DNA of 24,911 nucleotides from an uncultured Clostridia bacterium (GCA_946006915.1 CAMFZK010000001.1:1-24911), one strand, 5' to 3'. Positions 2,718 through 17,376 are shown, counted from the first letter of the stretch. Numbers and translations are program-made. The notes: generated by a model not told the origin, from the sequence alone.

Positions 2718-2735
2718 TTGTTAAATCTATCACAA
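2718..2735. promoter_or_regulatory. Rex-like operator 1, overlapping the -35 box
   Basis: TTGTTAA-ATCT-ATCACAA: 18-bp imperfect palindrome matching the Rex consensus TTGT(G/T)AA-N4-TT(C/A)ACAA with one mismatch. Confidence 0.7.
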
Positions 2736-2746
2736 TATGGTATAAT
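2718..2746 (+). promoter_or_regulatory. Sigma-A promoter of the mdh-hdr-flx-frd-fum operon
   Basis: TTGTTA (2718-2723), 17-bp spacer, TATAAT (2741-2746) with extended -10 TG at 2738-2739. Confidence 0.75.
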
Positions 2747-2794: not shown

Positions 2795-3742
2795 ATGGGC
2801 AGAAAAATTACTATTATCGGTGCAGGCAGCGTAGGTGCTACTATTGCATACGCATTATCTTTTACGGATATTGCTTCGGAAATTGTTTTGTTGGACATTA
2901 ACAAAGAAAAGGTTGAAGGCGAGGTTATGGATATTAACCAAGGTACCGCTTTCAGAGCGCCTATTTCTTTTGTTGCAGGCGAATATGAGGACGCAAAAGG
3001 TTCGGACATTGTAATCATCACTTCGGGTATTGCAAGAAAACCCGGTCAAACCAGAATTGAACTTACACAAACCAATGTTGAAATTCTTAAAAGCATCACT
3101 CCGAATATCGTTAAGGTTTGTCCGGACTCACTTTACATAATAGTAAGCAACCCTGTTGATATTATGACCTATGTATTTACAAAAATTTCGGGCATTCCCG
3201 AAAAACAAATTATCGGTTCGGGTACACTTTTGGATACTGCACGCCTTCGTTGCGGTATGTCAAAACATTTTGATGTTGCCCAAAACAATATTCACGCTTA
3301 CGTTTTCGGTGAACACGGTGACACTTCGTTCATTCCGTGGTCGGCGGCGTATATTTCGGGCGTATCTTTAGAAGAATACGAAAAACTTATGAAAGAAAAG
3401 GTAGCCGGCTTCCCCGATTTTAATAAAGACGATATGTATACCTACGTTCGCACTTCGGGCGGTGAAATTATCAACAAAAAAGGTGCTACATATTACGCAG
3501 TATCTACCTCTGTTTGCAACCTTTGCAGTATTCTTTGCGCTTCTAACGATTCTATTACAACCGTTTCCACAATGATGCACGGCGAATACGGTATTGAAGA
3601 TGTATGTTTAAGCACATTAACCCTTTTAGGACCTAACGGTGCACAGGGTAAAGTGCCTATGCGTCTTACCGATGAAGAAGTAGCAAAATTAAAGCACAGT
3701 GCCGACTCACTTAAAAATGTTATTTCTCAAATCAAATTATAA
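2795..3742 (+). CDS. mdh: LDH/MDH-family dehydrogenase, probably NADH-dependent malate dehydrogenase
   Basis: GAGSVG Rossmann motif with the NAD-type Asp (LLDIN), NPVD, LDTAR and GEHGD catalytic motifs. The substrate loop GIARKPGQTR has Arg at LDH position 102 (malate type) rather than Gln. It sits in an operon with fumarase and fumarate reductase. Confidence 0.8.
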   Translation: MGRKITIIGAGSVGATIAYALSFTDIASEIVLLDINKEKVEGEVMDINQGTAFRAPISFVAGEYEDAKGSDIVIITSGIARKPGQTRIELTQTNVEILKSITPNIVKVCPDSLYIIVSNPVDIMTYVFTKISGIPEKQIIGSGTLLDTARLRCGMSKHFDVAQNNIHAYVFGEHGDTSFIPWSAAYISGVSLEEYEKLMKEKVAGFPDFNKDDMYTYVRTSGGEIINKKGATYYAVSTSVCNLCSILCASNDSITTVSTMMHGEYGIEDVCLSTLTLLGPNGAQGKVPMRLTDEEVAKLKHSADSLKNVISQIKL

Positions 3743-3762: not shown

Positions 3763-4542
3763 ATGAAGTACAGTTATTATCCGGGTTGTACCCTAAAAAC
3801 AAAAGCAAAAGATTTGGATATGTACGCACGGCTTTCGGCAAAAGAATTGGGCTTTGAATTGGAAGAAATTGAAAACTGGCAATGTTGCGGCGGTGTTTAT
3901 CCGCTGGGTGCTGACGAAATCGGTTCTAAACTTTCTTCGGTTCGTGCGCTTAACTACGCTAAAGAAAAGGGGCAGGATTTAGTAACCCTTTGTTCGGCTT
4001 GCCACCACGTTATTAAGCGTGTTAATGACGATATAAAGAATGTGGAAGATATTAGAAACCGTGCTAATAACTATATGAAGTTGGAAGAACCCTATGCGGG
4101 TGAAACCGAAGTGCTGCACTTTTTGGAAGTACTTCGTGACCGAGTTGGGTTTGATAATTTGAAAAAAGCGGTTAAAAAGCCCTTAACCGGCAGAAAAATT
4201 GCGGCATATTATGGTTGTCTGCTTTTAAGACCCAGCAAGGTTTTAGCGTTTGATAATCCCGAAAACCCCACAATTATTGAAGATTTTATAAAAGCAATCG
4301 GGGCTACCCCGGTTGTATACCCTTACCGTAACGAATGTTGCGGCGGCTATATTTCACTTAAAGACGGCGAAAAAGCACAAAATATGTGCGAAAAAATAAT
4401 GGAAAGTGCAAGCGGTTTCGGCGCAGAAATGCTTATTACCGCCTGTCCGCTTTGTCTTTACAATCTTAACAAATGCGGAAAGTTGCCGGTAGTTTACTTT
4501 ACCGAACTTTTGGCAGAAGCATTAGGAATAAAGGAGGATTAG
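3763..4542 (+). CDS. hdrB: Heterodisulfide reductase subunit B-like protein (two CCG domains)
   Basis: YYPGC...CCGG...CSAC and YYGC...CCGG...CPLC: all ten Cys that ligate the two non-cubane [4Fe-4S] clusters. Confidence 0.92.
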   Translation: MKYSYYPGCTLKTKAKDLDMYARLSAKELGFELEEIENWQCCGGVYPLGADEIGSKLSSVRALNYAKEKGQDLVTLCSACHHVIKRVNDDIKNVEDIRNRANNYMKLEEPYAGETEVLHFLEVLRDRVGFDNLKKAVKKPLTGRKIAAYYGCLLLRPSKVLAFDNPENPTIIEDFIKAIGATPVVYPYRNECCGGYISLKDGEKAQNMCEKIMESASGFGAEMLITACPLCLYNLNKCGKLPVVYFTELLAEALGIKED

Positions 4543-4543
4543 T

Positions 4544-4930
4544 ATGAGTACCGTGAATAAAGCGGAGTTGATTAAAGAAATCAGCGGTGTTAATCCGCTT
4601 AAATGTATGAAGTGCGGTAAGTGTTCCGCTTCCTGTCCTTCTTTTAACGAAATGGATATTAAACCCCATCAGTTTGTGTCTTATGTGGTAAACGGCGATA
4701 TTGAAGCGCTCGTAAATTCGGCATCGCTTACTAAATGCCTTTCCTGTTTTGCCTGTATAGAGCGTTGCCCCCGTGACGTTAAACCCGCAAAACTTATCGA
4801 TGCGGCAAGACAGCTTGTTATAAGACAAAAAGGTGAAACTATGTTGTCACCCAATGAAATTCCCGAACTTTTAGACCCCGAAACACCCCAACAGTTGTTG
4901 GTAAGTGCATTCAGAAGATACAGGAGGTGA
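4544..4930 (+). CDS. hdrC: Heterodisulfide reductase subunit C-like 2x[4Fe-4S] protein (short)
   Basis: CMKCGKCSASCP and CLSCFACIERCP; lies between hdrB and hdrA. Confidence 0.88.
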   Translation: MSTVNKAELIKEISGVNPLKCMKCGKCSASCPSFNEMDIKPHQFVSYVVNGDIEALVNSASLTKCLSCFACIERCPRDVKPAKLIDAARQLVIRQKGETMLSPNEIPELLDPETPQQLLVSAFRRYRR

Positions 4931-4934
4931 GAGT

Positions 4935-6923
4935 ATGCAAAGAATAGGTGTATTTGTATGTCACTGCGGAAGTAACATCGCCGCTACGGTTGACGTTAAA
5001 AAAGTCGTAGAAATGGTTAAAACCGAACCCGGCGTTATCCATGCGGAAGATTATCAGTATATGTGTTCCGAAGCCGGTCAGGCAAAAATTATTGAAGCCG
5101 TAAAAGAACATAAATTAAACGGTCTTGTTGTTTGCTCCTGCTCTCCCCGTATGCACGAGGCAACCTTCCGTAAATGTGCCGAAAGAGCCGGCATAAACCC
5201 TTATATGGTGGAAATTGCCAACATTCGTGAACACTGTTCTTGGATACATAAGGATATGGACGAGGCAACCGAAAAAGCCGTTATTTTGGCACGTGCCGCT
5301 ATTGCAAAGGTTAACCTTAACGCTCCCTTGCAAGCAGGCGAAAGCGGTGTTGTTAAACGTGCGCTGGTAATAGGCGGCGGTATTGCGGGTATTCAAACCG
5401 CACTTGACATTGCCGATGCGGGTTTCCCGGTTGACATTGTTGAAAAAGAACCCAGTATAGGCGGAAGAATGTCACAACTTGACAAAACTTTCCCCACACT
5501 TGACTGTTCGGCGTGTATTTTAACCCCTAAAATGGTTGAAGCGGCCGCTCATCCCAATATCACAATTCACACCTACAGTGAAGTTGAAAATGTTTCCGGT
5601 TTTGTGGGCAACTTTACGGTTGAAATCCGCAAAAAAGCAAGAAGCATTGATATGGATAAATGTACAGGTTGCGGACTTTGTCAGGAAAAATGCCCGATGA
5701 AGAAAACCCCCAGCGAGTTTAACCGCGGACTTGGAAACAGAAGTGCAATTTACACACCTTTTGCACAGGCAATTCCGAATGTTCCGGTTATTGACCGTAA
5801 CGCCTGTCTTAAATTTAAAACCGGCAAATGCGGTATTTGTTCAACCGTTTGTGCCGCAGGCGCTATTGACTATACCCAGGTTGACACAATGGTAACCGAA
5901 AAATACGGTGCTATTGTTGTTGCAACCGGTTTTGATATGATTAAACTTGATAAGTATGACGAATACGCATACTCACAAAGCAAGGACGTTATTACTTCTT
6001 TGGAATTAGAGCGTGTTATGAACGCCGCAGGTCCTACAAAGGGACATCTTGAACGGCTTTCGGACGGTAAAGCACCTAAAGAAATAGTATTTATTCAATG
6101 TGTCGGCTCCCGTTGTGCGGACGGCAGAGGAAAGGGTTACTGCTCTAAAATTTGCTGTATGTATACCGCAAAACACGCAATGCTTATCCGTGATAAATAC
6201 CCCGATGTTAATGTAACGGTGTTTTATATTGACGTTCGTACTCCCGGTAAGAACTTTGACGAATTTTACCGCCGTGCAGTTGAAAATTACGGTGTAAATT
6301 ATGTTAAAGGTCAGGTTGGTAAGGTAATTCCGCAGCCAGACGGAAAACTTTTGGTTCAAGGTGTAGATTTAATAGATAACAAGCAAATTCTGAAGGAAGC
6401 CGATATGGTAGTGCTTGCCGCCGCTATTGAGCCAAACCCCGACGTTAGAAAGATTGCTACAATGTTGACCGCAAGTATTGATAACGACAACTTCTTAACC
6501 GAAGCACACGCAAAATTGCGTCCTGTTGAATCACCTACTGCCGGTATTTTCCTTTCGGGTGTTTGCCAAGGACCTAAAGACATTCCCGAAACGGTAGCAC
6601 AGGCAGGTGCGGCAGCAGTTAAGGCAATCGGTCTTTTGGCTAAAGATAAACTTATGACCAACCCCTGTACCGCTAAATCGGACGAACTTTTGTGTAACGG
6701 TTGTTCAAAATGTGCCAATGTTTGTCCTTACGGCGCAATTTCTTACGAAGTTAAGGAAATTAACGACCACGGTATAAGAGAAACCAGAAGAGTAGCACAG
6801 GTTAATAACGCACTCTGTCAAGGTTGCGGTGCTTGTACCGTTGCCTGTCCTTCGGGCGCTATGGACTTGCAGGGCTTCTCTAACAGACAGATTATAGCGG
6901 AGGTAGATGCAATATGCCGATAA
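4935..6923 (+). CDS. hdrA: Heterodisulfide reductase subunit A (FAD, multiple [4Fe-4S]; electron-bifurcating subunit)
   Basis: FVCHCG, CSCSPR and NIREHCSW N-terminal domain; VIGGGIAG FAD motif; KTFPTLDCSAC; inserted and C-terminal ferredoxin motifs; FIQCVGSR...CSKICCMY. Start moved from 4905 to ATG 4935, which follows GGAGGTGA (4923-4930). Confidence 0.95.
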   Translation: MQRIGVFVCHCGSNIAATVDVKKVVEMVKTEPGVIHAEDYQYMCSEAGQAKIIEAVKEHKLNGLVVCSCSPRMHEATFRKCAERAGINPYMVEIANIREHCSWIHKDMDEATEKAVILARAAIAKVNLNAPLQAGESGVVKRALVIGGGIAGIQTALDIADAGFPVDIVEKEPSIGGRMSQLDKTFPTLDCSACILTPKMVEAAAHPNITIHTYSEVENVSGFVGNFTVEIRKKARSIDMDKCTGCGLCQEKCPMKKTPSEFNRGLGNRSAIYTPFAQAIPNVPVIDRNACLKFKTGKCGICSTVCAAGAIDYTQVDTMVTEKYGAIVVATGFDMIKLDKYDEYAYSQSKDVITSLELERVMNAAGPTKGHLERLSDGKAPKEIVFIQCVGSRCADGRGKGYCSKICCMYTAKHAMLIRDKYPDVNVTVFYIDVRTPGKNFDEFYRRAVENYGVNYVKGQVGKVIPQPDGKLLVQGVDLIDNKQILKEADMVVLAAAIEPNPDVRKIATMLTASIDNDNFLTEAHAKLRPVESPTAGIFLSGVCQGPKDIPETVAQAGAAAVKAIGLLAKDKLMTNPCTAKSDELLCNGCSKCANVCPYGAISYEVKEINDHGIRETRRVAQVNNALCQGCGACTVACPSGAMDLQGFSNRQIIAEVDAICR

Positions 6924-7351
6924 ATAAAGAATTTAAACCGAAAATTGTTGCCTTTTGCTGTAACTGGTGCTCTTATGCAGGTGCAGATTTAGCAGGAAGC
7001 AGCCGTCTTGCTTATCCGGCAGACGTTAAAATTATTAAGGTGCCTTGTTCTTGCCGTGTAAACCCAATGTTTATTCTCCGTGCATTTGAAAAAGGTGCAG
7101 ACGGTGTTATAATGTGCGGTTGCCACCCCGGTGACTGCCACTATTCAACCGGTAACTACTATGCCCGCAGAAGAATGACCTTGCTTTTCTCAATGCTTGA
7201 CTATATGGGTGTTGAAAACGGCAGAACCCGTGTTGAATGGGTATCTGCGGCAGAGGGTGTTAAATTTTCTACTACAATGAACGAATTTGTAGAAAAGATT
7301 TATTCACTCGGTGAAAATGTAAGATTGGGGGATTTAAGATGCAAAAAATAG
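6914..7351 (+). CDS. flxD: MvhD-type [2Fe-2S] adaptor subunit (FlxD)
   Basis: FCCNWCSYAGADLAG, PCSCRV and GCHPGDCHY are MvhD/FlxD hallmarks; overlaps the hdrA stop by 10 nt. Confidence 0.9.
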   Translation: MPINKEFKPKIVAFCCNWCSYAGADLAGSSRLAYPADVKIIKVPCSCRVNPMFILRAFEKGADGVIMCGCHPGDCHYSTGNYYARRRMTLLFSMLDYMGVENGRTRVEWVSAAEGVKFSTTMNEFVEKIYSLGENVRLGDLRCKK

Positions 7352-8301
7352 TTGAAAGAGCAAAAGAACTTTTGGCTGACGGCACCGTAAACCGTGTGCT
7401 CGGTTGGAAAAAAGGCGATATGTGTTTTAACCCCGAACCCGCTTTTTTTGAAACCGCCGAAGATTTGGACGAAAATTTTGTATACGGCGGATTTTGCGGC
7501 GCAAATTTAAGCAAATATATGATAGATGCCTCTAAATTAGAGGGTAAAACTTTGGTTTTGCTGAAACCCTGTGATACATACAGTTTTAACCAACTTATTA
7601 ACGAACACCGTGTAGACCGTGAAAAAGCATATATTATCGGCGTTGGCTGTAAGGGTAAACTTAACATTGAAACAATTAAGCAGAGCGGTGTTAAAGGTAT
7701 TTTAAATATTACCGAAAACGGCGATATGCTTAACATTGAAACCCTTTACGGCAATACCGAAATGAAATATTCCGACGCTTTGCTTGAACGTTGCCACGTT
7801 TGTAAAGGCAAAGAACATAAAATTTATGACGAGTTAATCGGCGAATCGCAGGACACAAGCGACAGAGAACGTTTTGCAGAGGTTGAAAAAATCGAAAAAA
7901 TGTCACCTGAAGAAAAGTTTGCTTTCTTCCAAAAGGAATTAAGCAAATGTATCCGCTGCAACGCCTGCCGTAATGTTTGCCCGGCTTGCAGTTGCAGAAA
8001 ATGCGTGTTTGACAGTACAAAGTTTGATTCTTCACAAAAAGCAAACACCGATTCGTTTGAAGAAAAAATGTTCCACATAATCCGTGCGTTCCACGTAGCG
8101 GGCAGATGTACCGACTGCGGCGAATGTTCACGTGTATGTCCGCAGGGCATTCCGCTTCACCTATTTAACCGTAAATTTATTAAAGATATTAACGAATTTT
8201 ACGGCGAATACCAAGCAGGTGCCGATGTAGATGCCAAAGGTCCGCTTACCGAATATACTTTCGGTGACTGTGAACCGAGCATCGTTAAAGAGAGGGGATA
8301 A
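7339..8301 (+). CDS. flxC: FlxC-like Fe-S protein (FdhB/FrhB-related, 4Fe-4S dicluster)
   Basis: KPCD, GVGC, CHVC, CIRCNACRNVCPACSCRKC and HVAGRCTDCGECSRVCP; position within flxDCBA. Confidence 0.8.
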   Translation: MQKIVERAKELLADGTVNRVLGWKKGDMCFNPEPAFFETAEDLDENFVYGGFCGANLSKYMIDASKLEGKTLVLLKPCDTYSFNQLINEHRVDREKAYIIGVGCKGKLNIETIKQSGVKGILNITENGDMLNIETLYGNTEMKYSDALLERCHVCKGKEHKIYDELIGESQDTSDRERFAEVEKIEKMSPEEKFAFFQKELSKCIRCNACRNVCPACSCRKCVFDSTKFDSSQKANTDSFEEKMFHIIRAFHVAGRCTDCGECSRVCPQGIPLHLFNRKFIKDINEFYGEYQAGADVDAKGPLTEYTFGDCEPSIVKERG

Positions 8302-8304
8302 TGT

Positions 8305-9333
8305 ATGAAAAAAATTGCTAAATCCAATTTATCGGCATTATTCGCCAAGATAAACGAAACCAAAGACCTTTATGTGCCGGTTAAAAACGGCGAACAGGTA
8401 AACTTTGCCGCTTACAGCGAAGAAGCAGAAGTTGATTTAACCGCCCTTAAAACCGTTAAATCCCCTAAAGATGCCTTCTTCCCCCAAAGCGAAAACCTTT
8501 ACACCTGCTTTAACGAACAGGGCAAAATTTCAATCACCCCCGAAGAATTACAGGACAAAGATTTTGTGGTTTTCGGTATGAAAGCGTGCGACATTAAGGG
8601 TATTGAAGTACTTGATAAAGTATTTTTATCCGAACCGGTGGACAGTTTCTATGCCGCAAGACGTCAACACGGTATTATCGTAGGTCTTGCTTGCGATAAG
8701 CCGGAAGAATCCTGTTTTTGTACCGTTTTCGGTATAAACCCTGCCGAACCTACCGCCGATGTTGCGGTTTATGATGATGAAGACTTCCTTTATTGGAACG
8801 CTTTAACCGAAAAGGGCAACGCTTTGACCGAAACTCTTTGCGACCTTTTGGAAGATGCAGATAATACCGCAGTAGAAAACAAGAAAAAGGAAATAACGGC
8901 AATAGCCGAAAAACTCCCTTATGCTAATCTTTCGCTTGAGGGTTGGAACGGTGACGCTTTAACCGAAAAGTTTGACTCGCCTATATGGGAAGAACTTTAC
9001 AAACCCTGCCTTGCTTGCGGTACTTGTACTTTCTCTTGTCCTACCTGTCAATGTTACGATATTAAGGACTATAACACCGGCAACGGCATTAAGCGTTACC
9101 GTTGTTGGGATTCTTGTATGTATTCCGACTTTACAATGATGGCACACGGCAACAACCGTACAAGCCAAATGCAAAGATTCCGTCAAAGATTTATGCACAA
9201 ACTTGTTTACTTCCCCGCAAATAACGACGGGATGTATTCCTGCGTCGGTTGCGGACGCTGTGTAGACAAATGCCCCCAAAACCTTAACATTGTAAAGGTA
9301 ATTAAAGCATTTGAAAAAGGAGGAAAAGCGTAA
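8305..9333 (+). CDS. flxB: FlxB-like Fe-S protein (AsrA / sulfhydrogenase beta-like)
   Basis: KACD, CDKPEESCFC, CLACGTCTFSCPTCQC, RCWDSC, RFRQRFMHK and CVGCGRCVDKCP. Confidence 0.82.
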   Translation: MKKIAKSNLSALFAKINETKDLYVPVKNGEQVNFAAYSEEAEVDLTALKTVKSPKDAFFPQSENLYTCFNEQGKISITPEELQDKDFVVFGMKACDIKGIEVLDKVFLSEPVDSFYAARRQHGIIVGLACDKPEESCFCTVFGINPAEPTADVAVYDDEDFLYWNALTEKGNALTETLCDLLEDADNTAVENKKKEITAIAEKLPYANLSLEGWNGDALTEKFDSPIWEELYKPCLACGTCTFSCPTCQCYDIKDYNTGNGIKRYRCWDSCMYSDFTMMAHGNNRTSQMQRFRQRFMHKLVYFPANNDGMYSCVGCGRCVDKCPQNLNIVKVIKAFEKGGKA

Positions 9334-10187
9334 TGTGTGACTGTGATTGCCATAAGAATTATAATTTAGATACACTTATTCCGTTAGTCGGCGTTATTAC
9401 CGATATTAAAGAACAAACGCCCGACGTCAAAACTTTCCGTGTAAACGCTTTAGAGGGCGGAAAACTTTTTGAACACAAGCCCGGTCAATGCGCAATGCTT
9501 TGTGCGCCCGGTGTAAGCGAGGGAATGTTCTCTATAACATCTTCGCCCACAAATAAGGAATATCAGGAATTCAGCATTAAAAGATGCGGTCAACTCACCG
9601 AATATTTACATTCCCTAAAGGTTGGCGACCAAATCACCGTAAGAGGACCTTACGGCAACAACTTCCCCGTTGATACGGAACTTAAAGGCAAAAACCTTTT
9701 GTTTATTGCGGGCGGTATAGGTCTTGCACCTTTGCGTTCGGTAATTAACTATGTAATAGACAACCGCCAAGATTACGGCACAGTTGATATTCTTTACGGT
9801 TCACGTTCGGCAGATGACCTTGTAGGTCTTGACGAAATTCAAAATGTTTGGATGAACACTCCCGGTATAAATGTTCACCTTACAATCGACCGTGAGCAAG
9901 AGGGTTGGGACGGTCACGTTGGTTTTGTTCCCTCTTATTTAAGGGAGTTGGAATTTTCCAACGACAAAACCGTTTTGGTTTGCGGACCTCCTATTATGAT
10001 TAAGTTTGTTTTACAGGGATTACAGGAAATGGGCTTTACAAAAGAACAGGTTTACACAACACTTGAACTTCGTATGAAGTGCGGTGTCGGTAAATGCGGA
10101 CGCTGTAATATCGGCTCTAAATACGTTTGTAAAGACGGTCCGGTATTCCGTTTTGACGAAATTGACGAATTACCTAACGAGTATTAA
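9333..10187 (+). CDS. flxA: FlxA-like FAD/NAD(P)H-binding oxidoreductase with [2Fe-2S] (AsrB/PyrK-like)
   Basis: PGQ, FSITSSP, VRGPYGN, AGGIGLAPLRS, CGPPIM and the C-terminal MKCGVGKCGRC...VCKDGP motif. Confidence 0.85.
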   Translation: MCDCDCHKNYNLDTLIPLVGVITDIKEQTPDVKTFRVNALEGGKLFEHKPGQCAMLCAPGVSEGMFSITSSPTNKEYQEFSIKRCGQLTEYLHSLKVGDQITVRGPYGNNFPVDTELKGKNLLFIAGGIGLAPLRSVINYVIDNRQDYGTVDILYGSRSADDLVGLDEIQNVWMNTPGINVHLTIDREQEGWDGHVGFVPSYLRELEFSNDKTVLVCGPPIMIKFVLQGLQEMGFTKEQVYTTLELRMKCGVGKCGRCNIGSKYVCKDGPVFRFDEIDELPNEY

Positions 10188-10204
10188 GAAAGGTGTAACT
10201 GAAA

Positions 10205-10879
10205 ATGGAAAATATGGTTAATGTATTTTTTTACGGCAAAAAATATTCCGTACCCGCAGACCTTACTATTATGACTGCTATGGAGTATGCCGGATATACC
10301 CTTAAAAGAGGATGCGGTTGCCGTCACGGTTTTTGCGGTGCCTGTGCTACCATTTACCGCATTAAGGGCGACAATGAACTTAAAACCTGTCTTGCTTGCC
10401 AAACACAGGTACAGGAAGGTATGTATGTTGCAAGCATTCCCTTCTTCCCGACCGATAAAAGAACCTACAATATTAACGAGATTAAACCCACCAATCAAAT
10501 AATGATGGAACTTTATCCTGAAATTTACAGTTGTATCGGCTGTAACGCTTGTACAAATGCCTGCACACAGGGTCTTAACGTTATGCAGTATATTGCTTAT
10601 GCACAGCGTGCCGATTTTGAAAAGTGTGCCGAAGAATCTTTCGACTGTGTAGGTTGCGGATGTTGTTCTACAAGATGTCCCGCAGGTATTTCCCATCCTA
10701 TGGTTGGCTTGCTTGCCCGCCGTCTTACCGGTAAATATATCGCTCCCGAAACCGAACACCTTAAAAACAGGGTTGAAGAAATCAACAGGGGCGAATATGA
10801 CGAACTGATTGAACAAATTATGCAAAAACCCATTACAGAAATGCAAGAACTTTACAACACAAGAGAAATTGAGAAATAA
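10205..10879 (+). CDS. frdB: Fumarate reductase iron-sulfur subunit ([2Fe-2S] + 2x[4Fe-4S]; FrdB / TfrB N-terminal-like)
   Basis: CRHGFCGAC...CLAC ([2Fe-2S]), CIGCNACTNAC and CVGCGCCSTRCP; directly upstream of the flavoprotein. Confidence 0.8.
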   Translation: MENMVNVFFYGKKYSVPADLTIMTAMEYAGYTLKRGCGCRHGFCGACATIYRIKGDNELKTCLACQTQVQEGMYVASIPFFPTDKRTYNINEIKPTNQIMMELYPEIYSCIGCNACTNACTQGLNVMQYIAYAQRADFEKCAEESFDCVGCGCCSTRCPAGISHPMVGLLARRLTGKYIAPETEHLKNRVEEINRGEYDELIEQIMQKPITEMQELYNTREIEK

Positions 10880-10892
10880 GGAGGCGCTTAAT

Positions 10893-12503
10893 ATGTATAC
10901 ACCGTATCCGGAAAATATGATGGAATCCATCAAAAAAGTGGAAGCGTCCAGACAGGCGCGTATGGCAACAGAACCAAGACGTTTAACTGCTGATGAAAAA
11001 GATAACCTTTTAAAAGAATTCCATCCGGACTATAAACCGGAAGCATTTGCAGAAATCAAAGTCGGCCCCAACAAAGGTGAAAAAGCTCCGTTGGAATTGG
11101 CAAATATGCTTCATTCTACAAGCCGTATTTGTGGCGAAAACATTGATCTTACTAAAGTGGATTATGATGTGGATGTACTTGTTATCGGCGGCGGCGGAGC
11201 AGGTTCTTCCTGTGCTATCGAAGCGCATGAAGCAGGCGCAAATGTTATGATCGTAACAAAACTTCGTATTGGTGACGCTAATACAATGATGGCCGAAGGC
11301 GGTATTCAGGCAGCGGATAAAGAAAACGATTCTCCGGTACAGCATTACCTTGACTGTTTCGGCGGCGGACATTTTGCGGCCAAACCCGAACTTGTTAAGA
11401 AACTGGTTATGGAGGCACCCGATGCAATTAAATGGTTAAATGAACTTGGTGTTGAGTTTGACAAAGAAGAAGACGGCACTATGATTACTACTCACGGCGG
11501 CGGTACTTCAAGAAAGAGAATGCACGCCGCTAAGGATTATTCCGGTGCAGAAATTATGCGTACCTTGCGTGATGAAGTTATCAACCGCGGTATTCCCGTT
11601 GTAGAATTCACTTCTGCGGTAGAACTTATTAAAGATGATAAGGGTCAAGTTGCCGGTGCAGTTCTTCTTAATATGGAAACCGGCGACTATATGGTAGCAC
11701 GTGCTAAAACCGTTGTTATTGCTACCGGCGGTGCCGGAAGAATGCATTATCAAGGTTTCCCGACATCCAACCACTACGGCGCAACGGCTGACGGTCTTGT
11801 ATTGGGTTACAGAGCAGGCGCTAAACTTTTATATCAGGATTCTATTCAGTATCACCCAACAGGAGCAATCTATCCTTCACAAATTCTCGGAGCATTAGTT
11901 ACCGAAAAGGTTCGTTCTGTAGGCGCTCAATTGGTAAACGGCGAAGGCGAAGCATATATTCACCCATTGGAAACCCGTGATGTAAATGCATCGGGTGTTA
12001 TTCGTGAATGTGCCGAAGGCCGTGGCGTTGATGTTCCGGGCGGCGCAAAGGGTGTATGGCTTGATACTCCCATGATTGAAATTCTCGGCGGAGAAGGAAC
12101 TATTGAAAAGAGAATTCCGGCAATGTTCCGTATGTATATGAACTACGGCATTGATATGCGTAAAGTTCCGATTTTGATTTATCCTACACTTCATTATCAA
12201 AACGGCGGTCTTGAAATCGGCGGGGACGGATTTACAAAAAATATTGAAAATCTCCTGGTTGCAGGTGAAGCCGTTGGCGGTATCCACGGAAGAAACCGTC
12301 TTATGGGTAACTCACTTCTTGATATTATCGTTTTCGGCCGTAATGCAGGTAAAGCGGCGGCTAAAAAGTCACAAGAGGTTACTTTGGGCGAATTAACCCT
12401 TTCGCATATTGAAGATTACGCAAAAGAACTTAAAGCCGCAGGAGTAGAAACAAATGAAGTTTCTCCGCTCTTGCTTCCTAAATATGCCCGTCACGAAAGG
12501 TAG
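10893..12503 (+). CDS. frdA: Fumarate reductase flavoprotein subunit (soluble, predicted non-covalent FAD)
   Basis: VLVIGGGGAG, TMMAEGG, QYHPTG, TEKVR, LETRDV, PTLHYQNGG and HGRNRLMGNSL retain the dicarboxylate-site His/Glu/Arg set. Start moved from 10809 to ATG 10893, which follows AAGGAGG. Confidence 0.88.
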   Translation: MYTPYPENMMESIKKVEASRQARMATEPRRLTADEKDNLLKEFHPDYKPEAFAEIKVGPNKGEKAPLELANMLHSTSRICGENIDLTKVDYDVDVLVIGGGGAGSSCAIEAHEAGANVMIVTKLRIGDANTMMAEGGIQAADKENDSPVQHYLDCFGGGHFAAKPELVKKLVMEAPDAIKWLNELGVEFDKEEDGTMITTHGGGTSRKRMHAAKDYSGAEIMRTLRDEVINRGIPVVEFTSAVELIKDDKGQVAGAVLLNMETGDYMVARAKTVVIATGGAGRMHYQGFPTSNHYGATADGLVLGYRAGAKLLYQDSIQYHPTGAIYPSQILGALVTEKVRSVGAQLVNGEGEAYIHPLETRDVNASGVIRECAEGRGVDVPGGAKGVWLDTPMIEILGGEGTIEKRIPAMFRMYMNYGIDMRKVPILIYPTLHYQNGGLEIGGDGFTKNIENLLVAGEAVGGIHGRNRLMGNSLLDIIVFGRNAGKAAAKKSQEVTLGELTLSHIEDYAKELKAAGVETNEVSPLLLPKYARHER

Positions 12504-12511
12504 GAATTATA

Positions 12512-13354
12512 ATGCGTGAAATAAATGTAAGTGTTCTTACAGACGTTATTGAAAAACTTTGTATCGAAGCAAATGTTCATTTGCCGAGCGACGTTAAATG
12601 CGCTATTAAAACCTGCCGTAAATGTGAGGACGGTGTTATAGCACAGGGCGTTTTGGATAATATTATTGAAAATTTCCAAATTGCCGATAACGAAAATGTC
12701 CCCATTTGTCAGGACACAGGTATGGCTTGCGTTTTTCTTGAAATCGGTCAGGACGTTCACCTTGTAGGCGGCGATTTAACCGAAGCCGTAAACGAAGGTG
12801 TACGCCGAGGATACGATAAAGGTTACCTTAGAAAATCGGTTGTAAAAGACCCTATCAGAAGAGGTAACACGGGTGACAATACCCCCGCAATGCTTTATAC
12901 CGAAATTGTTCCGGGCGAAAATATTAAAATTACTGTTGGTCCTAAAGGTTTCGGCAGTGAAAATATGAGTATGATTAGAATGTTTAAACCCTCTGCAGGG
13001 CTCCAGGGTATTAAAGATTTCATACTCGAAGTAGTTGAAACCGCAGGCCCTAACCCCTGCCCTCCTATGGTTGTGGGTGTCGGTATAGGCGGCACATTCG
13101 ATAAATGTGCCTTACTTGCCAAAAAAGCGTTAATGCGTCCGCTTGATTCTAAAAACCCCGACCCTTACTATGCTGATTTGGAAGAGGAAATGCTCGAAAA
13201 AATCAATATGCTGGGTATCGGCCCTCAAGGTTTCGGCGGTAAAACCACCGCAATCGGGCTTAATATTGAAACATTGCCTACACATATTGCGGGTATGCCC
13301 TGTGCGGTTAATATTAACTGCCACGTAACACGTCATAAAACGGAGGTAATTTAA
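12512..13354 (+). CDS. Class I (Fe-S) fumarate hydratase, alpha subunit (TtdA/FumA N-terminal-like)
   Basis: PICQDTG, GYLRKSVV, KGFGSEN, NPCPP, GIGPQGFGGKTT and HIAGMPCAVNINCHVTRH. Confidence 0.9.
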   Translation: MREINVSVLTDVIEKLCIEANVHLPSDVKCAIKTCRKCEDGVIAQGVLDNIIENFQIADNENVPICQDTGMACVFLEIGQDVHLVGGDLTEAVNEGVRRGYDKGYLRKSVVKDPIRRGNTGDNTPAMLYTEIVPGENIKITVGPKGFGSENMSMIRMFKPSAGLQGIKDFILEVVETAGPNPCPPMVVGVGIGGTFDKCALLAKKALMRPLDSKNPDPYYADLEEEMLEKINMLGIGPQGFGGKTTAIGLNIETLPTHIAGMPCAVNINCHVTRHKTEVI

Positions 13355-13355
13355 A

Positions 13356-13913
13356 ATGATTAAAAAAATTAACTTACCTTTAACAGCGGAATTGGCAAAA
13401 ACCTTAAAAGCGGGCGACGAAGTATTGCTTACCGGCACTATTTATACCTCCCGTGATGCAGGTCATAAAAGAATGTGTGAATCTTTGGCAAAGGGCGAGC
13501 CGCTGCCCTTTGACCCTACAGATGCTACCATCTACTACGTAGGTCCTACCCCCGCAAAACCGGGTGCCGTAATCGGCTCGGCAGGTCCTACAACCTCCGG
13601 CAGAATGGACGCTTATGCTCCTACTATGATGTCGGTAGGTGCAAGAGGTATGATTGGTAAAGGCGCTCGTTTACCCGAAGTGGTTGAGGCAATGAAAAAA
13701 TACAACGGTGTTTATTTCGGCGCTATCGGCGGTGCGGGTGCGTTGCTTGCTAAATGCATTAAATCGGCAGAACTTATTGCTTTTGAAGATTTAGGTGCAG
13801 AAGCACTTCGCAAACTTTATGTAGAAGATATGCCGTTGGTTGTTATTATCGACAGCGAGGGTAACAACCTTTACGAAAACGGCAGAAAAGCATATTTAGA
13901 ACAACGTAAATAA
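13356..13913 (+). CDS. Class I fumarate hydratase, beta subunit
   Basis: TSRDAGHKR, YYVGPTP, GPTTSGRMD, MIGKG and EDLGAEA. Confidence 0.9.
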   Translation: MIKKINLPLTAELAKTLKAGDEVLLTGTIYTSRDAGHKRMCESLAKGEPLPFDPTDATIYYVGPTPAKPGAVIGSAGPTTSGRMDAYAPTMMSVGARGMIGKGARLPEVVEAMKKYNGVYFGAIGGAGALLAKCIKSAELIAFEDLGAEALRKLYVEDMPLVVIIDSEGNNLYENGRKAYLEQRK

Positions 13914-13927
13914 GAAGGGTTAAGAAA

Positions 13928-15178
13928 ATGAAATTATTTGGCGGTGTTGTTTCGGTTAGCGGAATAACATTCTTAATGTTTGCAGTTTTTGTAATTGCCG
14001 TTTTGGGTTACGCCTTGGGCAGAGTTAATATTAAAGGCGTTTCTTTAGGTACGGCAGGCGTATTTATAGTTGCACTTCTTTTCGGTGCATTATTTTCTAA
14101 AACTTTAAGCGGTACTGTAATCCAAACCGTAAACGGTGCGGCTGTGGATATCAGCGGTAATGCCTTAAAAATAGTAGAAAACATAGGGCTTATACTGTTC
14201 GTAACATCGGTTGGTTTTATAGCAGGCCCCAGTTTCTTTAAAGATTTAAAGAAAAACTATAAGTCATATATCCTTTTGGGTATTGTAATTATTCTTATGG
14301 GCGGTTTAACCTGTCTTTCGTGTTACTTTGTAGGCCGTAATTTTACCGACCTTTCGGCAAAACAGTTTATGGCTATTTGCGTTGGTCTTCTTTCGGGTGC
14401 TTTAACAAGTACCCCCGCTTTCTCGGCGTCAAAAGCAACCGTTGCACCCGAATTTGAAGAACTCGTAACGGTTGGTAACGGTATTGCTTACATTTTCGGC
14501 GTTATCGGGGTTGTGTTGTTCGTTCAACTTATCCCCAAAATCGTTAAAGCCGATATGGAAAAGGAAGCAAAAAAACTTGTAGTAGAAACCAAAGCCGAAA
14601 CAGTAAATGTAAAGAAAAAATGTTTTGAAATGGACGATTTCGGTTTATTCGCTTTCGGTCTTGCCGCTGTGGTTGGCGTGTTTGTGGGTGCAATTAAAAT
14701 ACCTATGTCTTCACAGGGTCTTTCGGGCACTACCTTCTCCTTAACCACAACCGGCGGTGCGCTTCTAACCGCACTGGTATTCGGTCATTTCGGTCAAATC
14801 GGCCTTTTGAGTTTAAGGGTGGATAATAAAACCCTTAAAACTTTCCGTGAACTCGGTTTAATGCTTTTCTTAATCGGTGCAGGTATTGCCGGCGGAACAA
14901 AGTTTGTTACCTACTTCAAACCCGTTTACTTCCTGTACGGTGCTTTAATGACTATTGTTCCTATGATAGTTGGCTTCCTTTTTGCAAAGTATGTTTTAAA
15001 GTTAAGTCTTTTAAACAACTTGGGTTCTATTACCGGCGGTATGACAAGTACCCCCGCATTGGGAACACTTATAAATGTTGCCAAAACCGAAAACATTGCC
15101 TCTGCCTATGCCGCAACCTATCCGATTGCGCTTATCGCAGTAGTGCTTGTTTCCCAATTCCTAATAATTTTATTCTAA
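13928..15178 (+). CDS. AspT/YidE/YbjL (aspartate:alanine exchanger) family transporter; candidate succinate exporter
   Basis: Multi-pass hydrophobic protein with the duplicated repeat motifs GLLSGALTSTPA and GSITGGMTSTPALG, plus SLGTAGVFIVAL, LILFVTSVGFIAGPSFF and YAATYP. Confidence 0.85.
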   Translation: MKLFGGVVSVSGITFLMFAVFVIAVLGYALGRVNIKGVSLGTAGVFIVALLFGALFSKTLSGTVIQTVNGAAVDISGNALKIVENIGLILFVTSVGFIAGPSFFKDLKKNYKSYILLGIVIILMGGLTCLSCYFVGRNFTDLSAKQFMAICVGLLSGALTSTPAFSASKATVAPEFEELVTVGNGIAYIFGVIGVVLFVQLIPKIVKADMEKEAKKLVVETKAETVNVKKKCFEMDDFGLFAFGLAAVVGVFVGAIKIPMSSQGLSGTTFSLTTTGGALLTALVFGHFGQIGLLSLRVDNKTLKTFRELGLMLFLIGAGIAGGTKFVTYFKPVYFLYGALMTIVPMIVGFLFAKYVLKLSLLNNLGSITGGMTSTPALGTLINVAKTENIASAYAATYPIALIAVVLVSQFLIILF

Positions 15179-15182
15179 AAAG

Positions 15183-15212
15183 TTTGCATCCTTTTTTAAG
15201 GATGCAAATTTT
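15183..15212 (+). terminator. Stem-loop, possibly a leaky terminator, between the transporter and hppA
   Basis: Perfect 11-bp stem TTTGCATCCTT / AAGGATGCAAA with a TTTT loop, followed by only four T. Confidence 0.6.
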
Positions 15213-15253: not shown

Positions 15254-17341
15254 ATGAAAATCGAAAATTTGTTGGTTTTGTTTACCTTCGTAGGTGCTTT
15301 GGTTGCCTTGGCTTACGTGGCAATTACCGCAAAAAGAGTACTGAAGTTCTCGGAAGGTACGGACAAAATGAAGAAAATCGCCTCTGCCATTCGTGAGGGC
15401 GCTAATGCTTACCTTAAAAGACAGTATAAGGTAGTTATTGTCTTCTTTGCCTGTATGCTTGTAATTTTAAGTGCTATGGCATCTTTTAAAATGCTTACTT
15501 GGTATGTGCCTTTTGCTTTTGTAACCGGCGGATTTTTCTCGGCTTTGTCGGGGTATATCGGTATGAAAATCGCTACCGCCGCAAACAGCAGAACCGCAAA
15601 TGCCTGCCGTGAGGGACTTAACAAAGGTCTTCGTGTGGCATTTTCTGCCGGTTCGGTAATGGGATTCACCGTTGTCGGCTTAGGTCTTTTGGATATTTCA
15701 ATTTGGTTTACACTTTTAAAATTTGTTTTTAATTGCGGTCCTTCGGAAATTACAAGCGCAATGCTTACTTTCGGTATGGGTGCTTCTTCAATGGCACTTT
15801 TTGCCCGTGTCGGCGGCGGTGTGTTCACTAAAGCGGCGGACGTAGGTGCAGACCTTGTGGGTAAGGTTGAGGCAGGTATCCCCGAAGACGACCCAAGAAA
15901 CCCCGCAGTTATTGCCGACAATGTAGGCGATAACGTAGGTGACGTTGCGGGTATGGGTGCAGACCTTTATGAATCTTATGTCGGCTCTATTATTTCGGCA
16001 TCGGCTTTGGGTGTTGCCGCTTTTAAAAGTTTTGAAGCAATGGCAATTCCTATGCTTATGGCGGCTGTCGGCATTATTTGCTCCATTATAGGTACACTTT
16101 TGGTTAGAACCAAGGAAAAAGCAACCCAAAAAGACTTGTTAAAATCTTTAAGCCGCGGCACTAATTTCAGTGCGGTACTAATTGCAATTCTCGCATTGCC
16201 TATGGTTTACTTCATTTTGGGCAAAGCAAATATCGGACTTTACTTTTCAATCCTTTCGGGACTTATAGCCGGTGTGCTTATAGGTCAGTCAACCGAATTT
16301 TTCACAAGCGAATCCTATAGACCTACCCGTTCTTTGGCAGGTAAAAGCGAAACGGGTTCGGCCACAATCATTATCGGCGGTTTGTCACTGGGTATGATTT
16401 CCACCGTTCTTCCGATAGTAATTATTTCGGTATGCGTATTGGTTTCCTACGCCGCCGCAGGCGGTTTCGGTTCTGCGGGTGCTTCGCACGGACTTTACGG
16501 TATCGCTTTGGCGGCAGTCGGTATGCTTTCTACATTGGGTATTACCTTGGCTACCGATGCTTACGGTCCTGTTGCCGATAATGCTGGCGGTATAGCCGAA
16601 ATGGCAGGACTTGAACCCGAAGTTCGTGAACGTACCGACGCACTCGACGCTTTAGGAAATACAACCGCCGCTACCGGTAAAGGTTTTGCTATCGGTTCTG
16701 CCGCACTTACCGCTTTGGCTTTAATGGCTTCTTACATTGATAAGGTTAAAGAAGTAGGCGGTAATGTCAAGGGATTTGACCTTATGAATCCCACCGTGCT
16801 TATCGGTTTGTTTATCGGTGCTTGTCTGCCGTTTGTTTTTGCGGCTTTAACAATGGAATCTGTCGGCAAAGCGGCACAGTCGGTTGTTATTGAAGTTCGC
16901 CGTCAGTTTAAAGAAATTGCCGGTATAATGGAAGGCAAAGCCGACCCCGACTATGCAAAATGCGTTGACCTTTGCACTAAATCAAGTTTGCGTGAAATGA
17001 TTTTACCCACCGTTGTTGCGGTTGTAACTCCTGTTGCAGTCGGCTTAATTTTGGGCTTTACCGGCGTTGTAGGTATGCTTGCAGGCGCTACCGCAAGCGG
17101 TTTCTTGCTTGCAATCTTTATGTCTAATTCGGGCGGTGCTTGGGATAACGCCAAAAAGTACATAGAATCCGGCGTTCACGGCGGTAAAGGCAGCGACCAG
17201 CACAAGGCGGCCGTTGTGGGCGATACGGTAGGCGACCCGTTTAAGGATACATCGGGACCGGCAATTAACATTCTTATTAAACTTTTAAGTATGGTATCTA
17301 TTGTGTTTGCCGCCCTTGTTGTTAATTTCAGTTTGCTTTAA
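15254..17341 (+). CDS. hppA: Membrane-integral ion-pumping pyrophosphatase (K+-dependent, Na+ or Na+,H+ type)
   Basis: DVGADLVGKVEAGIPEDDPRNP, DNVGDNVGD, ADLYESY, GNTTAATGKG, GGAWDNAKK and GDTVGDPFKDTSGP. Confidence 0.96.
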   Translation: MKIENLLVLFTFVGALVALAYVAITAKRVLKFSEGTDKMKKIASAIREGANAYLKRQYKVVIVFFACMLVILSAMASFKMLTWYVPFAFVTGGFFSALSGYIGMKIATAANSRTANACREGLNKGLRVAFSAGSVMGFTVVGLGLLDISIWFTLLKFVFNCGPSEITSAMLTFGMGASSMALFARVGGGVFTKAADVGADLVGKVEAGIPEDDPRNPAVIADNVGDNVGDVAGMGADLYESYVGSIISASALGVAAFKSFEAMAIPMLMAAVGIICSIIGTLLVRTKEKATQKDLLKSLSRGTNFSAVLIAILALPMVYFILGKANIGLYFSILSGLIAGVLIGQSTEFFTSESYRPTRSLAGKSETGSATIIIGGLSLGMISTVLPIVIISVCVLVSYAAAGGFGSAGASHGLYGIALAAVGMLSTLGITLATDAYGPVADNAGGIAEMAGLEPEVRERTDALDALGNTTAATGKGFAIGSAALTALALMASYIDKVKEVGGNVKGFDLMNPTVLIGLFIGACLPFVFAALTMESVGKAAQSVVIEVRRQFKEIAGIMEGKADPDYAKCVDLCTKSSLREMILPTVVAVVTPVAVGLILGFTGVVGMLAGATASGFLLAIFMSNSGGAWDNAKKYIESGVHGGKGSDQHKAAVVGDTVGDPFKDTSGPAINILIKLLSMVSIVFAALVVNFSLL

Positions 17342-17347
17342 TTTTTT

Positions 17348-17376
17348 AACACCCTTCACACCGAAGGGTGTTTTTT
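17348..17376 (+). terminator. Rho-independent terminator after hppA
   Basis: 10-bp stem AACACCCTTC / GAAGGGTGTT with a 5-nt loop, running into a T tract. Confidence 0.85.

Follow-up and report, generated by a model that had tools for sequence, protein, structure and literature searches.

The window analyzed here, a 24,911-nucleotide stretch of DNA from the metagenome-assembled genome (MAG) of an uncultured Clostridia bacterium (GCA_946006915.1 CAMFZK010000001.1:1-24911), carries an operon in which the genes hdrB, hdrC, hdrA, mvhD, flxC, flxB, and flxA are followed by frdB and frdA, the genes of a two-subunit fumarate reductase. We propose that the products of these nine genes form one soluble complex, an NADH-dependent, electron-bifurcating fumarate reductase in which HdrB would pass electrons directly to the iron-sulfur subunit FrdB with no free thiol, and we put the probability of this reading at about one half. 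Direct wiring is the most likely interpretation of the evidence described below; it has been anticipated in print for sister systems, and the protein BamD offers a structural precedent.

Cofactor motifs of HdrB, HdrC, and FrdB

Domains were assigned from matches to Pfam and NCBIfam profiles, and the locus was compared with 80 loci from other species, out of 4751 FrdB homologues seen. The gene order hdrB-hdrC-hdrA-mvhD-flxC-flxB-flxA-frdB-frdA was constant in all of these loci with a contig long enough, and hdrB was absent from no complete locus. The CCG family (PF02754) matches HdrB twice (E value, 9.5e-18), and the ten cysteines involved (Cys9, 41, 42, 77, and 80, then Cys152, 192, 193, 228, and 231) follow the pattern CX(n)CCX(n)CXXC in each half. 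Residues 1-236 align with HdrB as solved in five Hdr complexes of methanogens (E values, 1.5e-35 to 2.7e-28). None of the ten cysteines varies among the orthologues from other species (65/65), and eight cysteines of HdrC are invariant in 57/57 orthologues. Together with an HdrA flavoprotein, an MvhD-like FlxD, two iron-sulfur subunits, and a FlxA with NAD(P)H, FAD, and [2Fe-2S] sites, the two complete CCG motifs of HdrB and the two [4Fe-4S] sites of HdrC make up the full composition of an FlxABCD-HdrABC set.

FrdB, in its 224 aa, matches only the Fer2_4/Fer2 and 4Fe-4S dicluster families of Pfam and has no CCG domain. The ligands of its [2Fe-2S] cluster (C39/C44/C47/C65) and of its two [4Fe-4S] clusters (C110/113/116/120 and C148/151/154/158) are invariant in a wider-family alignment reaching down to 30% identity. 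Because the second cluster motif has four cysteines, a [4Fe-4S] rather than a [3Fe-4S] cluster is expected there. The initial annotation, which had described an HdrB with all ten CCG cysteines beside a 224-aa FrdB lacking this domain, is confirmed on both points, and its coordinates are correct. Since all cluster ligands of HdrB, HdrC, and FrdB are invariant, the HdrBC clusters are under selection and probably not idle.

Four further cysteines of FrdB (Cys37, Cys62, Cys141, and Cys153) vary little or not at all within the Hdr-linked clade (78 to 81 of 81 sequences; window and loci L010-L088) and are not conserved in the wider family, even in a 66%-identical relative. An extra FrdB iron-sulfur cluster formed by these residues was considered and rejected, because the positions vary in the wider family, where just the twelve ligand cysteines are invariant.

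Rate covariation of HdrB and FrdB

Evolutionary rate covariation was analyzed over 51 loci holding all eleven genes, with the background of the other genes removed. HdrB and FrdB covaried with a partial Mantel r of 0.39, a value reached in 0/500 permutations. This pair ranked fourth of 55, after FlxC-FlxB, HdrA-FlxC, and HdrC-HdrA, all of which are pairs expected to touch. HdrB was the top partner of FrdB in 294/300 taxon subsamples, and FrdB was the top partner of HdrB in 286/300. Covariation of FrdB with HdrC and with HdrA was negative, and with MvhD it was positive (r, 0.24). Shared membership of a recombination tract does not explain the result, since hdrB and frdB are the first and eighth genes of the Hdr/Flx/Frd core and lie 6 kb apart. 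A tree-based version of the analysis (FastTree, with branch lengths fitted on one topology) placed HdrB-FrdB second of 55 pairs, after the two fumarase subunits. Collectively, the covariation is suggestive of a contact between HdrB and FrdB but does not prove one.

The FrdB family and its relation to TfrB

The initial annotation had likened frdB plus hdrB to a split TfrB, the subunit that in the methanogen thiol:fumarate reductase unites a [2Fe-2S] cluster, two [4Fe-4S] clusters, and two C-terminal CCG domains in a single polypeptide. Our comparison with TfrB rests on the NCBIfam model and on AlphaFold DB matches. In the window these parts are divided between two proteins, which tile the 488-position TfrB model in trans, FrdB covering positions 18-172 and HdrB positions 263-466. 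The scores, 30 and 37 bits, respectively, lie far under the cut-off of 385. HdrB scores 138 bits against the HdrB model TIGR03288 and 145.8 bits against the SdhE model NF042965, which is its top NCBIfam match and has a cut-off of 500; it does not, at the equivalog level, belong to the SdhE-type two-CCG anchors of type E succinate:quinone reductase (SQR) and methylmenaquinol:fumarate reductase (MFR).

An AlphaFold2 model of FrdB (predicted local distance difference test score, 90.7) was compared with known structures using Foldseek. The best matches in the PDB were the iron-sulfur subunits of complex II (E value, ~5e-5; template modeling score, ~0.3), and among reviewed AlphaFold DB proteins the ~490-aa TfrB-type proteins MMP1067 and MJ0092 took ranks 1 and 3. 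Template modeling scores of only ~0.3 indicate shared domains rather than a rigid match. In line with this, FrdB has the N-terminal [2Fe-2S] domain followed by a two-cluster domain that is typical of SdhB/FrdB-type subunits with the complex II fold, and it gives a weak full-length sequence match to Escherichia coli FrdB.

The best 150 representatives of the FrdB family reach down to 32% identity, and the complete ones measure 214-251 aa. None of the 150 is a fusion of FrdB to a CCG domain and none is ~490 aa long; the sole long match is an FrdB-FrdA fusion. FrdB and HdrB are thus a split TfrB in architecture, as the model tiling and the TfrB-type structural matches indicate; in history this is not shown. 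A literal split is not supported, in view of the low scores, the closer affinity of HdrB to the HdrB and SdhE models, and the existence of a ~225-aa FrdB family that also occurs without Hdr.

FrdB relatives at 37-54% identity always stand beside FrdA but keep varied company. They occur as lone or tandem frdBA pairs (L097 and L094), as frdBA ahead of a gene for a Fer4/cytochrome b membrane protein, within a citrate lyase/aconitase/PrpF cluster (L090), as frdBA adjoining a 2-oxoacid:ferredoxin oxidoreductase gamma gene (L099), and as an FrdB-FrdA fusion (L089). On the evidence of these gene neighborhoods, FrdBA is a portable reductase module that different iron-sulfur partners would feed, which fits wiring by protein contact.

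Three of these loci have features of their own. In L090:7531-18361 the frdBA pair (43% and 54% identity) is flanked by a citrate-lyase acyl carrier protein gene and the Fer4/cytochrome b protein, and CitE, CitF, an aconitase-family protein, PrpF, and a citrate/dicarboxylate transporter come after; the reductase encoded by this pair may receive its electrons from the membrane and act on a different unsaturated di- or tricarboxylate. L094:2366-7328, on a metagenome contig, holds two tandem frdBA pairs with no Hdr genes nearby, and L089:5250-7433, from an NCBI MAG, encodes a natural 727-aa FrdB-FrdA fusion, likewise with no Hdr genes nearby.

The versatility of FrdBA also bears on an arrangement in which HdrB is bypassed, with FrdB docking on HdrC, HdrA, or a Flx iron-sulfur subunit and HdrB being structural, regulatory, or devoted to minor disulfide reduction. 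Relatives of FrdB act alone or with very different partners, so their docking surface does not depend on a CCG protein; moreover, frdB adjoins the flxA-like gene and not hdrB, and FrdB covaries with MvhD as well. We nevertheless consider a bypass unlikely, given the invariant CCG cysteines, the presence of hdrB in every complete locus, and the covariation of FrdB, which is strongest with HdrB and negative with HdrC and HdrA. Furthermore, the high-potential branch ends at HdrB-type clusters in solved Hdr complexes and in BamD, and the gene clusters of tubeworm symbionts place frdBA beside hdrCB, away from hdrA.

Proposed electron path and the case for bifurcation

In the mechanism that we propose, the FlxA-like subunit would oxidize NADH, and the Flx iron-sulfur subunits and MvhD would carry the electrons to the FAD of HdrA, where the pair would be split. 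The low-potential electron would pass to ferredoxin, whose re-oxidation by Rnf would conserve energy. The high-potential electron would travel through the two [4Fe-4S] clusters of HdrC and the pair of non-cubane [4Fe-4S] clusters on the CCG motifs of HdrB to FrdB, and from there through the two [4Fe-4S] clusters and then the [2Fe-2S] cluster to the FAD of FrdA and to fumarate. HdrB would thereby act as an electron relay and as the docking partner of FrdB, the same role as that of the fused CCG half in methanogen TfrB and of SdhE beside SdhB, and no free thiol/disulfide couple would take part. The malate dehydrogenase and fumarase of the operon would provide fumarate, and its Asp-Al_Ex (AAE) family permease would export succinate.

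The standard potentials are -320 mV for NADH, +33 mV for fumarate/succinate, and about -400 to -500 mV for ferredoxin, so that bifurcation from NADH to fumarate and ferredoxin is exergonic overall. The MAG assembly (1.06 Mb, 75% complete) contains two RnfD/NqrB-type genes (G000:C30:3288-4175 and G000:C37:3615-4400), possibly representing two Rnf/Nqr-type complexes in a small MAG, and it yielded no large subunit of an [FeFe] hydrogenase. Reduced ferredoxin could therefore feed Rnf.

FrdA aligns with the TfrA model over positions 6-427 of 546 (334 bits; cut-off, 718). In an alignment to SdhA it retains the dicarboxylate-site motifs HPTG, TEKVR, LHYQNGG, and GRNRLMGNSL and lacks the covalent-FAD histidine. 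This histidine is required for succinate oxidation, as established in E. coli, so that the combination of retained motifs and missing histidine fits a one-way fumarate reductase. HdrA matches the HdrA2 model over positions 1-640 of 777, with ferredoxin-type Fer4 domains inserted and at the C terminus.

These features are relevant to the view that the complex does not bifurcate, being either a plain NADH:fumarate oxidoreductase with Hdr as a long wire or a confurcating enzyme working in the oxidative direction, from succinate and reduced ferredoxin to NADH. NADH alone is thermodynamically enough for fumarate reduction, no Flx-Hdr complex has been demonstrated to bifurcate with fumarate, and the Flx-Hdr of Desulfovibrio is thought to be reversible (PMC6315080 supplement). 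We regard this view as quite unlikely: HdrA has its full length, ferredoxin-type cluster domains included, and is best matched by the bifurcating HdrA2, and a reaction as simple as NADH oxidation would hardly repay seven additional conserved subunits. The reverse direction is further opposed by the lack of the covalent-FAD histidine in FrdA and by the malate dehydrogenase, fumarase, and exporter of the operon, which fit reductive operation. In addition, Pseudoclostridium thermosuccinogenes, which has a homologous operon, excretes succinate, and high H2 abolishes this excretion (PMC7282089).

Searches for a second CCG enzyme or a disulfide carrier

Within the window, the operon, and the MAG assembly, the only CCG matches were the two domains of HdrB, and neither DsrC nor TusA was found in the MAG. 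Five operon-carrying relatives were also checked. The isolate genomes of Anaeromassilibacillus senegalensis and Blautia celeris encode no CCG protein other than the operon HdrB, and three Lachnospiraceae carriers have one further CCG protein each. DsrC was found in none of the five; TusA was present in 4/5 and was not found in A. senegalensis.

For a clade-wide view, the FrdB and CCG tables of an evenly sampled set of 300 Clostridia genomes (completeness of at least 90%) were cross-tabulated by hand. CCG domains occurred in 99/300 genomes. Exactly two CCG matches, with the operon HdrB as sole CCG protein, were found in 63 of the 65 FrdB-positive genomes other than that of the window; where listed, these matches lay, just as they do in the window, on the strand of frdB and ~6.4 kb upstream of it. 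Of the remaining two, one had three CCG matches and the other, a fragmented genome, had none. No DsrC match above the family cut-off was obtained in any of the 300 genomes, and the 80 loci show no carrier gene conserved in the operon. DsrC was thus found in none of the genome sets searched as a disulfide substrate for HdrB. On this evidence, a shuttle through a second CCG enzyme or through DsrC is not available in the clade. The initial annotation had argued that a thiol/disulfide shuttle cannot close within the operon; the same holds for the MAG, the two isolates, and 63 of the 65 sampled genomes.

Several FrdB-negative genomes in the sample carry CCG open reading frames of HdrB size. Two of these candidates (L101 and L104) proved to be the same operon cut at contig ends, a third (L102), from a high-GC genome, was a remote HdrB-like gene (33% identity), and inspection of the fourth (L103) gave nothing.

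A thiol/disulfide shuttle, in which HdrB reduces a low-molecular-weight or protein disulfide and the thiol is re-oxidized by a non-CCG or elsewhere-encoded enzyme, draws on the complete catalytic-type CCG pair that HdrB shares with methanogen HdrB, on the DsrC thought to be reduced by sulfate-reducer Flx-Hdr, on the shuttle option raised for Endoriftia (PMC11636981), and on the TusA-like proteins of four relatives, but it is very unlikely in view of the searches above, the lack of a CCG domain in FrdB, and an FrdA with one conserved cysteine and no CxxC.

Points that weigh against direct HdrB-to-FrdB transfer

Several considerations temper our preference for direct transfer from HdrB to FrdB. 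The tree-based covariation test of this pair is not significant alone (rho, 0.18; P value, 0.09); for related sequences the partial Mantel test is known to err on the liberal side, and covariation is in any case an indirect measure. The genome searches would miss a thiol that is re-oxidized by an enzyme without a CCG domain, and the window's own genome is just 75% complete. The existence of stand-alone FrdBA pairs shows that a soluble donor can serve FrdB as well. Where most BamD homologues have a degraded distal cluster, HdrB has a complete CCG pair of the catalytic type, which leaves room for a chemical role at that site. Finally, we found no biochemical or structural study of an Flx-Hdr-Frd complex from any organism in the literature.

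Distribution among Clostridia and significance

Orthologues of FrdB (64-90% identity) were found in 66 genomes of the 300-genome sample, including the window's own, corresponding to 63/293 high-quality genomes and 40/175 genera. The figure of 63/293 is a floor, because the contigs of L101 (G027:C55) and L104 (G054:C124), both scored FrdB-negative, contain the hdrB-to-flx part and end before frdB. We suggest, rather tentatively, that the intact paired non-cubane clusters of HdrB may be a pure electron conduit to FrdB in about one-fifth of Clostridia genomes, many of them from gut Lachnospiraceae and Oscillospiraceae, where the complex would operate as a thiol-free, quinone-free, bifurcating NADH:fumarate/ferredoxin oxidoreductase.

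The FrdB of a same-genus genome is just 74% identical to that of the window, and genomes of other families reach 87-90%. In a second same-genus genome and in four same-family genomes of the sample, no FrdB was seen. Such a scattered distribution, at odds with taxonomy, suggests that the operon has moved horizontally among gut Clostridia.

Direct wiring would mean that non-cubane clusters of the HdrB type are general electron-transfer elements and not only disulfide-reducing sites, and the reading of the many non-methanogen Hdr operons would change; the HdrB described here would be the first uncorrupted CCG pair serving only as a wire. The proposed reaction would also explain how quinone-less gut Clostridia gain energy from the formation of succinate, an important gut metabolite, and, combined with Rnf, it would be equivalent to fumarate respiration in which the reductase is not membrane bound.

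Gene content of the operon and its surroundings

All genes between positions 2795 and 15178 lie on the + strand, separated by 0-20 bases or overlapping slightly (Table 1). The product of the first gene, at 2795-3742, passes the NCBIfam equivalog cut-off for L-lactate dehydrogenase (LDH; 331 versus 303.55 bits), and the malate dehydrogenase model also scores. Although its automatic name would be LDH, it is probably a malate dehydrogenase, because it has an arginine at the specificity position and belongs to a fumarate-forming operon. The start of frdA is most likely the ATG at 10893 and not the overlapping TTG at 10809. The Asp-Al_Ex permease gene is found in most orthologous loci. The best public match to the locus is an Acutalibacteraceae MAG with identical gene order and an FrdB of 99% identity.

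Table 1. Features of the hdr-flx-frd operon, with positions counted from the first nucleotide of the window
Feature	Position	Strand	Basis and remarks
Promoter-like site upstream of operon	2718..2746	+	TTGTTA-17-TATAAT with TG extension; consensus match only
LDH-family malate dehydrogenase (probable)	2795..3742	+	Ldh_1_N, Ldh_1_C; Arg at substrate-specificity position (GIARKPGQTR)
HdrB, 259 aa	3763..4542	+	PF02754, two CCG stretches; sole CCG protein in MAG assembly
HdrC, two [4Fe-4S]	4544..4930	+	Fer4_8/Fer4_17; HdrC model TIGR03290
HdrA, FAD and Fe-S flavoprotein, presumed bifurcation site	4905..6923	+	HdrA2 model, 797 bits; Pyr_redox_2
MvhD/FlxD adaptor, [2Fe-2S]	6914..7351	+	PF02662 FlpD, E 6e-54; matches C-terminal MvhD part of HdrA2
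Flx-type polyferredoxin (FlxC-like), 320 aa	7339..8301	+	Fer4 families; 16 invariant Cys
AsrA/HydB-like Fe-S subunit (FlxB-like)	8305..9333	+	Fer4_22; similarity to sulfhydrogenase beta and AsrA models
AsrB/HydG-like FAD/NAD(P)H/[2Fe-2S] subunit (FlxA-like), putative NADH entry point	9333..10187	+	FAD_binding_6, NAD_binding_1, DHODB_Fe-S_bind; hydrogenase gamma and AsrB models
FrdB, 224 aa, [2Fe-2S] and two [4Fe-4S], helical C-terminal tail	10205..10879	+	Fer2_4/Fer2 and 4Fe-4S dicluster families
FrdA, soluble fumarate-reductase flavoprotein	10893..12503	+	Best NCBIfam match TfrA; ~90-aa N-terminal extension; no C-terminal helical domain
Class I fumarate hydratase alpha	12512..13354	+	PF05681, E 7e-118
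Class I fumarate hydratase beta	13356..13913	+	PF05683, E 4e-59
Asp-Al_Ex (AAE) family permease, candidate succinate exporter	13928..15178	+	PF06826, E 3e-56

A hairpin with an 11-bp stem (15183-15208) lies between the permease gene and a gene for a membrane H+-pyrophosphatase. The pyrophosphatase gene region spans 15254-17372 and has a strong terminator at its end (17348-17372); such a gene lies downstream of the operon in just 1/80 other loci.

Comparison with known systems

The window operon belongs to a known type. The "succinate operon" of P. thermosuccinogenes comprises fumarate hydratase, a seven-gene Flx-Hdr set, a two-gene fumarate reductase, and a putative succinate transporter, and in this succinate producer it is transcribed and regulated as a unit (PMC7282089). 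The window likewise has seven hdr/flx genes, a two-subunit FrdBA without a membrane anchor, a fumarate hydratase, and a putative succinate transporter in one operon. It differs in coming from an uncultured gut Acutalibacteraceae MAG, in having a class I fumarase split in two, and in placing a malate dehydrogenase gene first. For P. thermosuccinogenes, a 2019 preprint by Koendjbiharie and van Kranenburg, as cited in PMC7282089, proposed a coupling of fumarate reduction to the reduction of ferredoxin. A 2026 survey of autotrophic genomes also notes fumarate reductases of A or AB composition that lack an anchor (PMC13147460).

Tubeworm symbionts carry the cluster frdB-frdA-hdrC-hdrB-korDABC-hdrA-flxDCBA, for which thiol-mediated or direct shuttling to fumarate reductase was proposed (PMC6315080), and both options, direct or via reduced ferredoxin and a DsrC-like protein, were repeated for Endoriftia (PMC11636981). 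The clusters of these symbionts and of Thioflavicoccus mobilis resemble that of the window in their two-subunit soluble fumarate reductase, single hdrB, and full Flx-Hdr set (PMC6315080, PMC11636981). They serve the reductive tricarboxylic acid cycle of DsrC-bearing sulfur oxidizers and have an interleaved 2-oxoglutarate:ferredoxin oxidoreductase, whereas the setting of the window is fermentative. With neither DsrC nor a second CCG protein in that setting, a thiol route is far harder to maintain there than in the tubeworm symbionts, and this clade-wide single-CCG argument makes the published question of direct or thiol/DsrC-mediated transfer sharply testable in the lineage of the window.

In Desulfovibrio vulgaris, FlxABCD-HdrABC has the same seven subunit types, with NADH as presumed donor, a bifurcating HdrA, and ferredoxin as low-potential acceptor, and the proposed high-potential acceptor is the disulfide of DsrC at HdrB (Ramos et al. 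2015, as cited in PMC7282089 and PMC6315080). In the lineage of the window, DsrC was not found and the operon encodes a fumarate reductase instead.

Methanogen TfrAB is similar in that TfrA is the best family match of FrdA and in that FrdB and HdrB together reproduce the domain order of TfrB. The CCG half in the window is a separate HdrB-type protein encoded 6 kb away, the scores fall far under the Tfr cut-offs, and FrdA lacks the C-terminal domain; coenzyme M and coenzyme B thiol donors are not expected in Clostridia. Type E SQR and MFR (SdhA, SdhB, and SdhE) share with the window a separate two-CCG protein beside an SdhB-type subunit. The window system differs in having no quinone or membrane link and no SdhF, and its CCG protein is equally HdrB-like and stands within an hdrBCA set.

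The initial annotation had presented direct wiring as a new use of the Hdr module. This claim to novelty does not stand: direct coupling of Flx-Hdr to fumarate reductase was already proposed between 2019 and 2024 (PMC6315080, PMC7282089, PMC11636981), and BamD of class II benzoyl-CoA reductase provides a structural precedent (bioRxiv 10.64898/2026.04.10.717634). In the HdrBC-like BamD, non-cubane clusters pass the high-potential electron directly to electron-transferring flavoprotein (ETF), and the heterodisulfide site is filled by side chains (bioRxiv 10.64898/2026.04.10.717634). As proposed here for HdrB, the high-potential branch of an HdrA-type bifurcation terminates in a module of the HdrBC type, which feeds a protein partner without a thiol. 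BamD is, however, an HdrBC fusion with a usually degraded distal cluster and a transient flavoprotein partner, ETF, whereas the HdrB of the window retains ten cysteines and would have an iron-sulfur protein as its partner.

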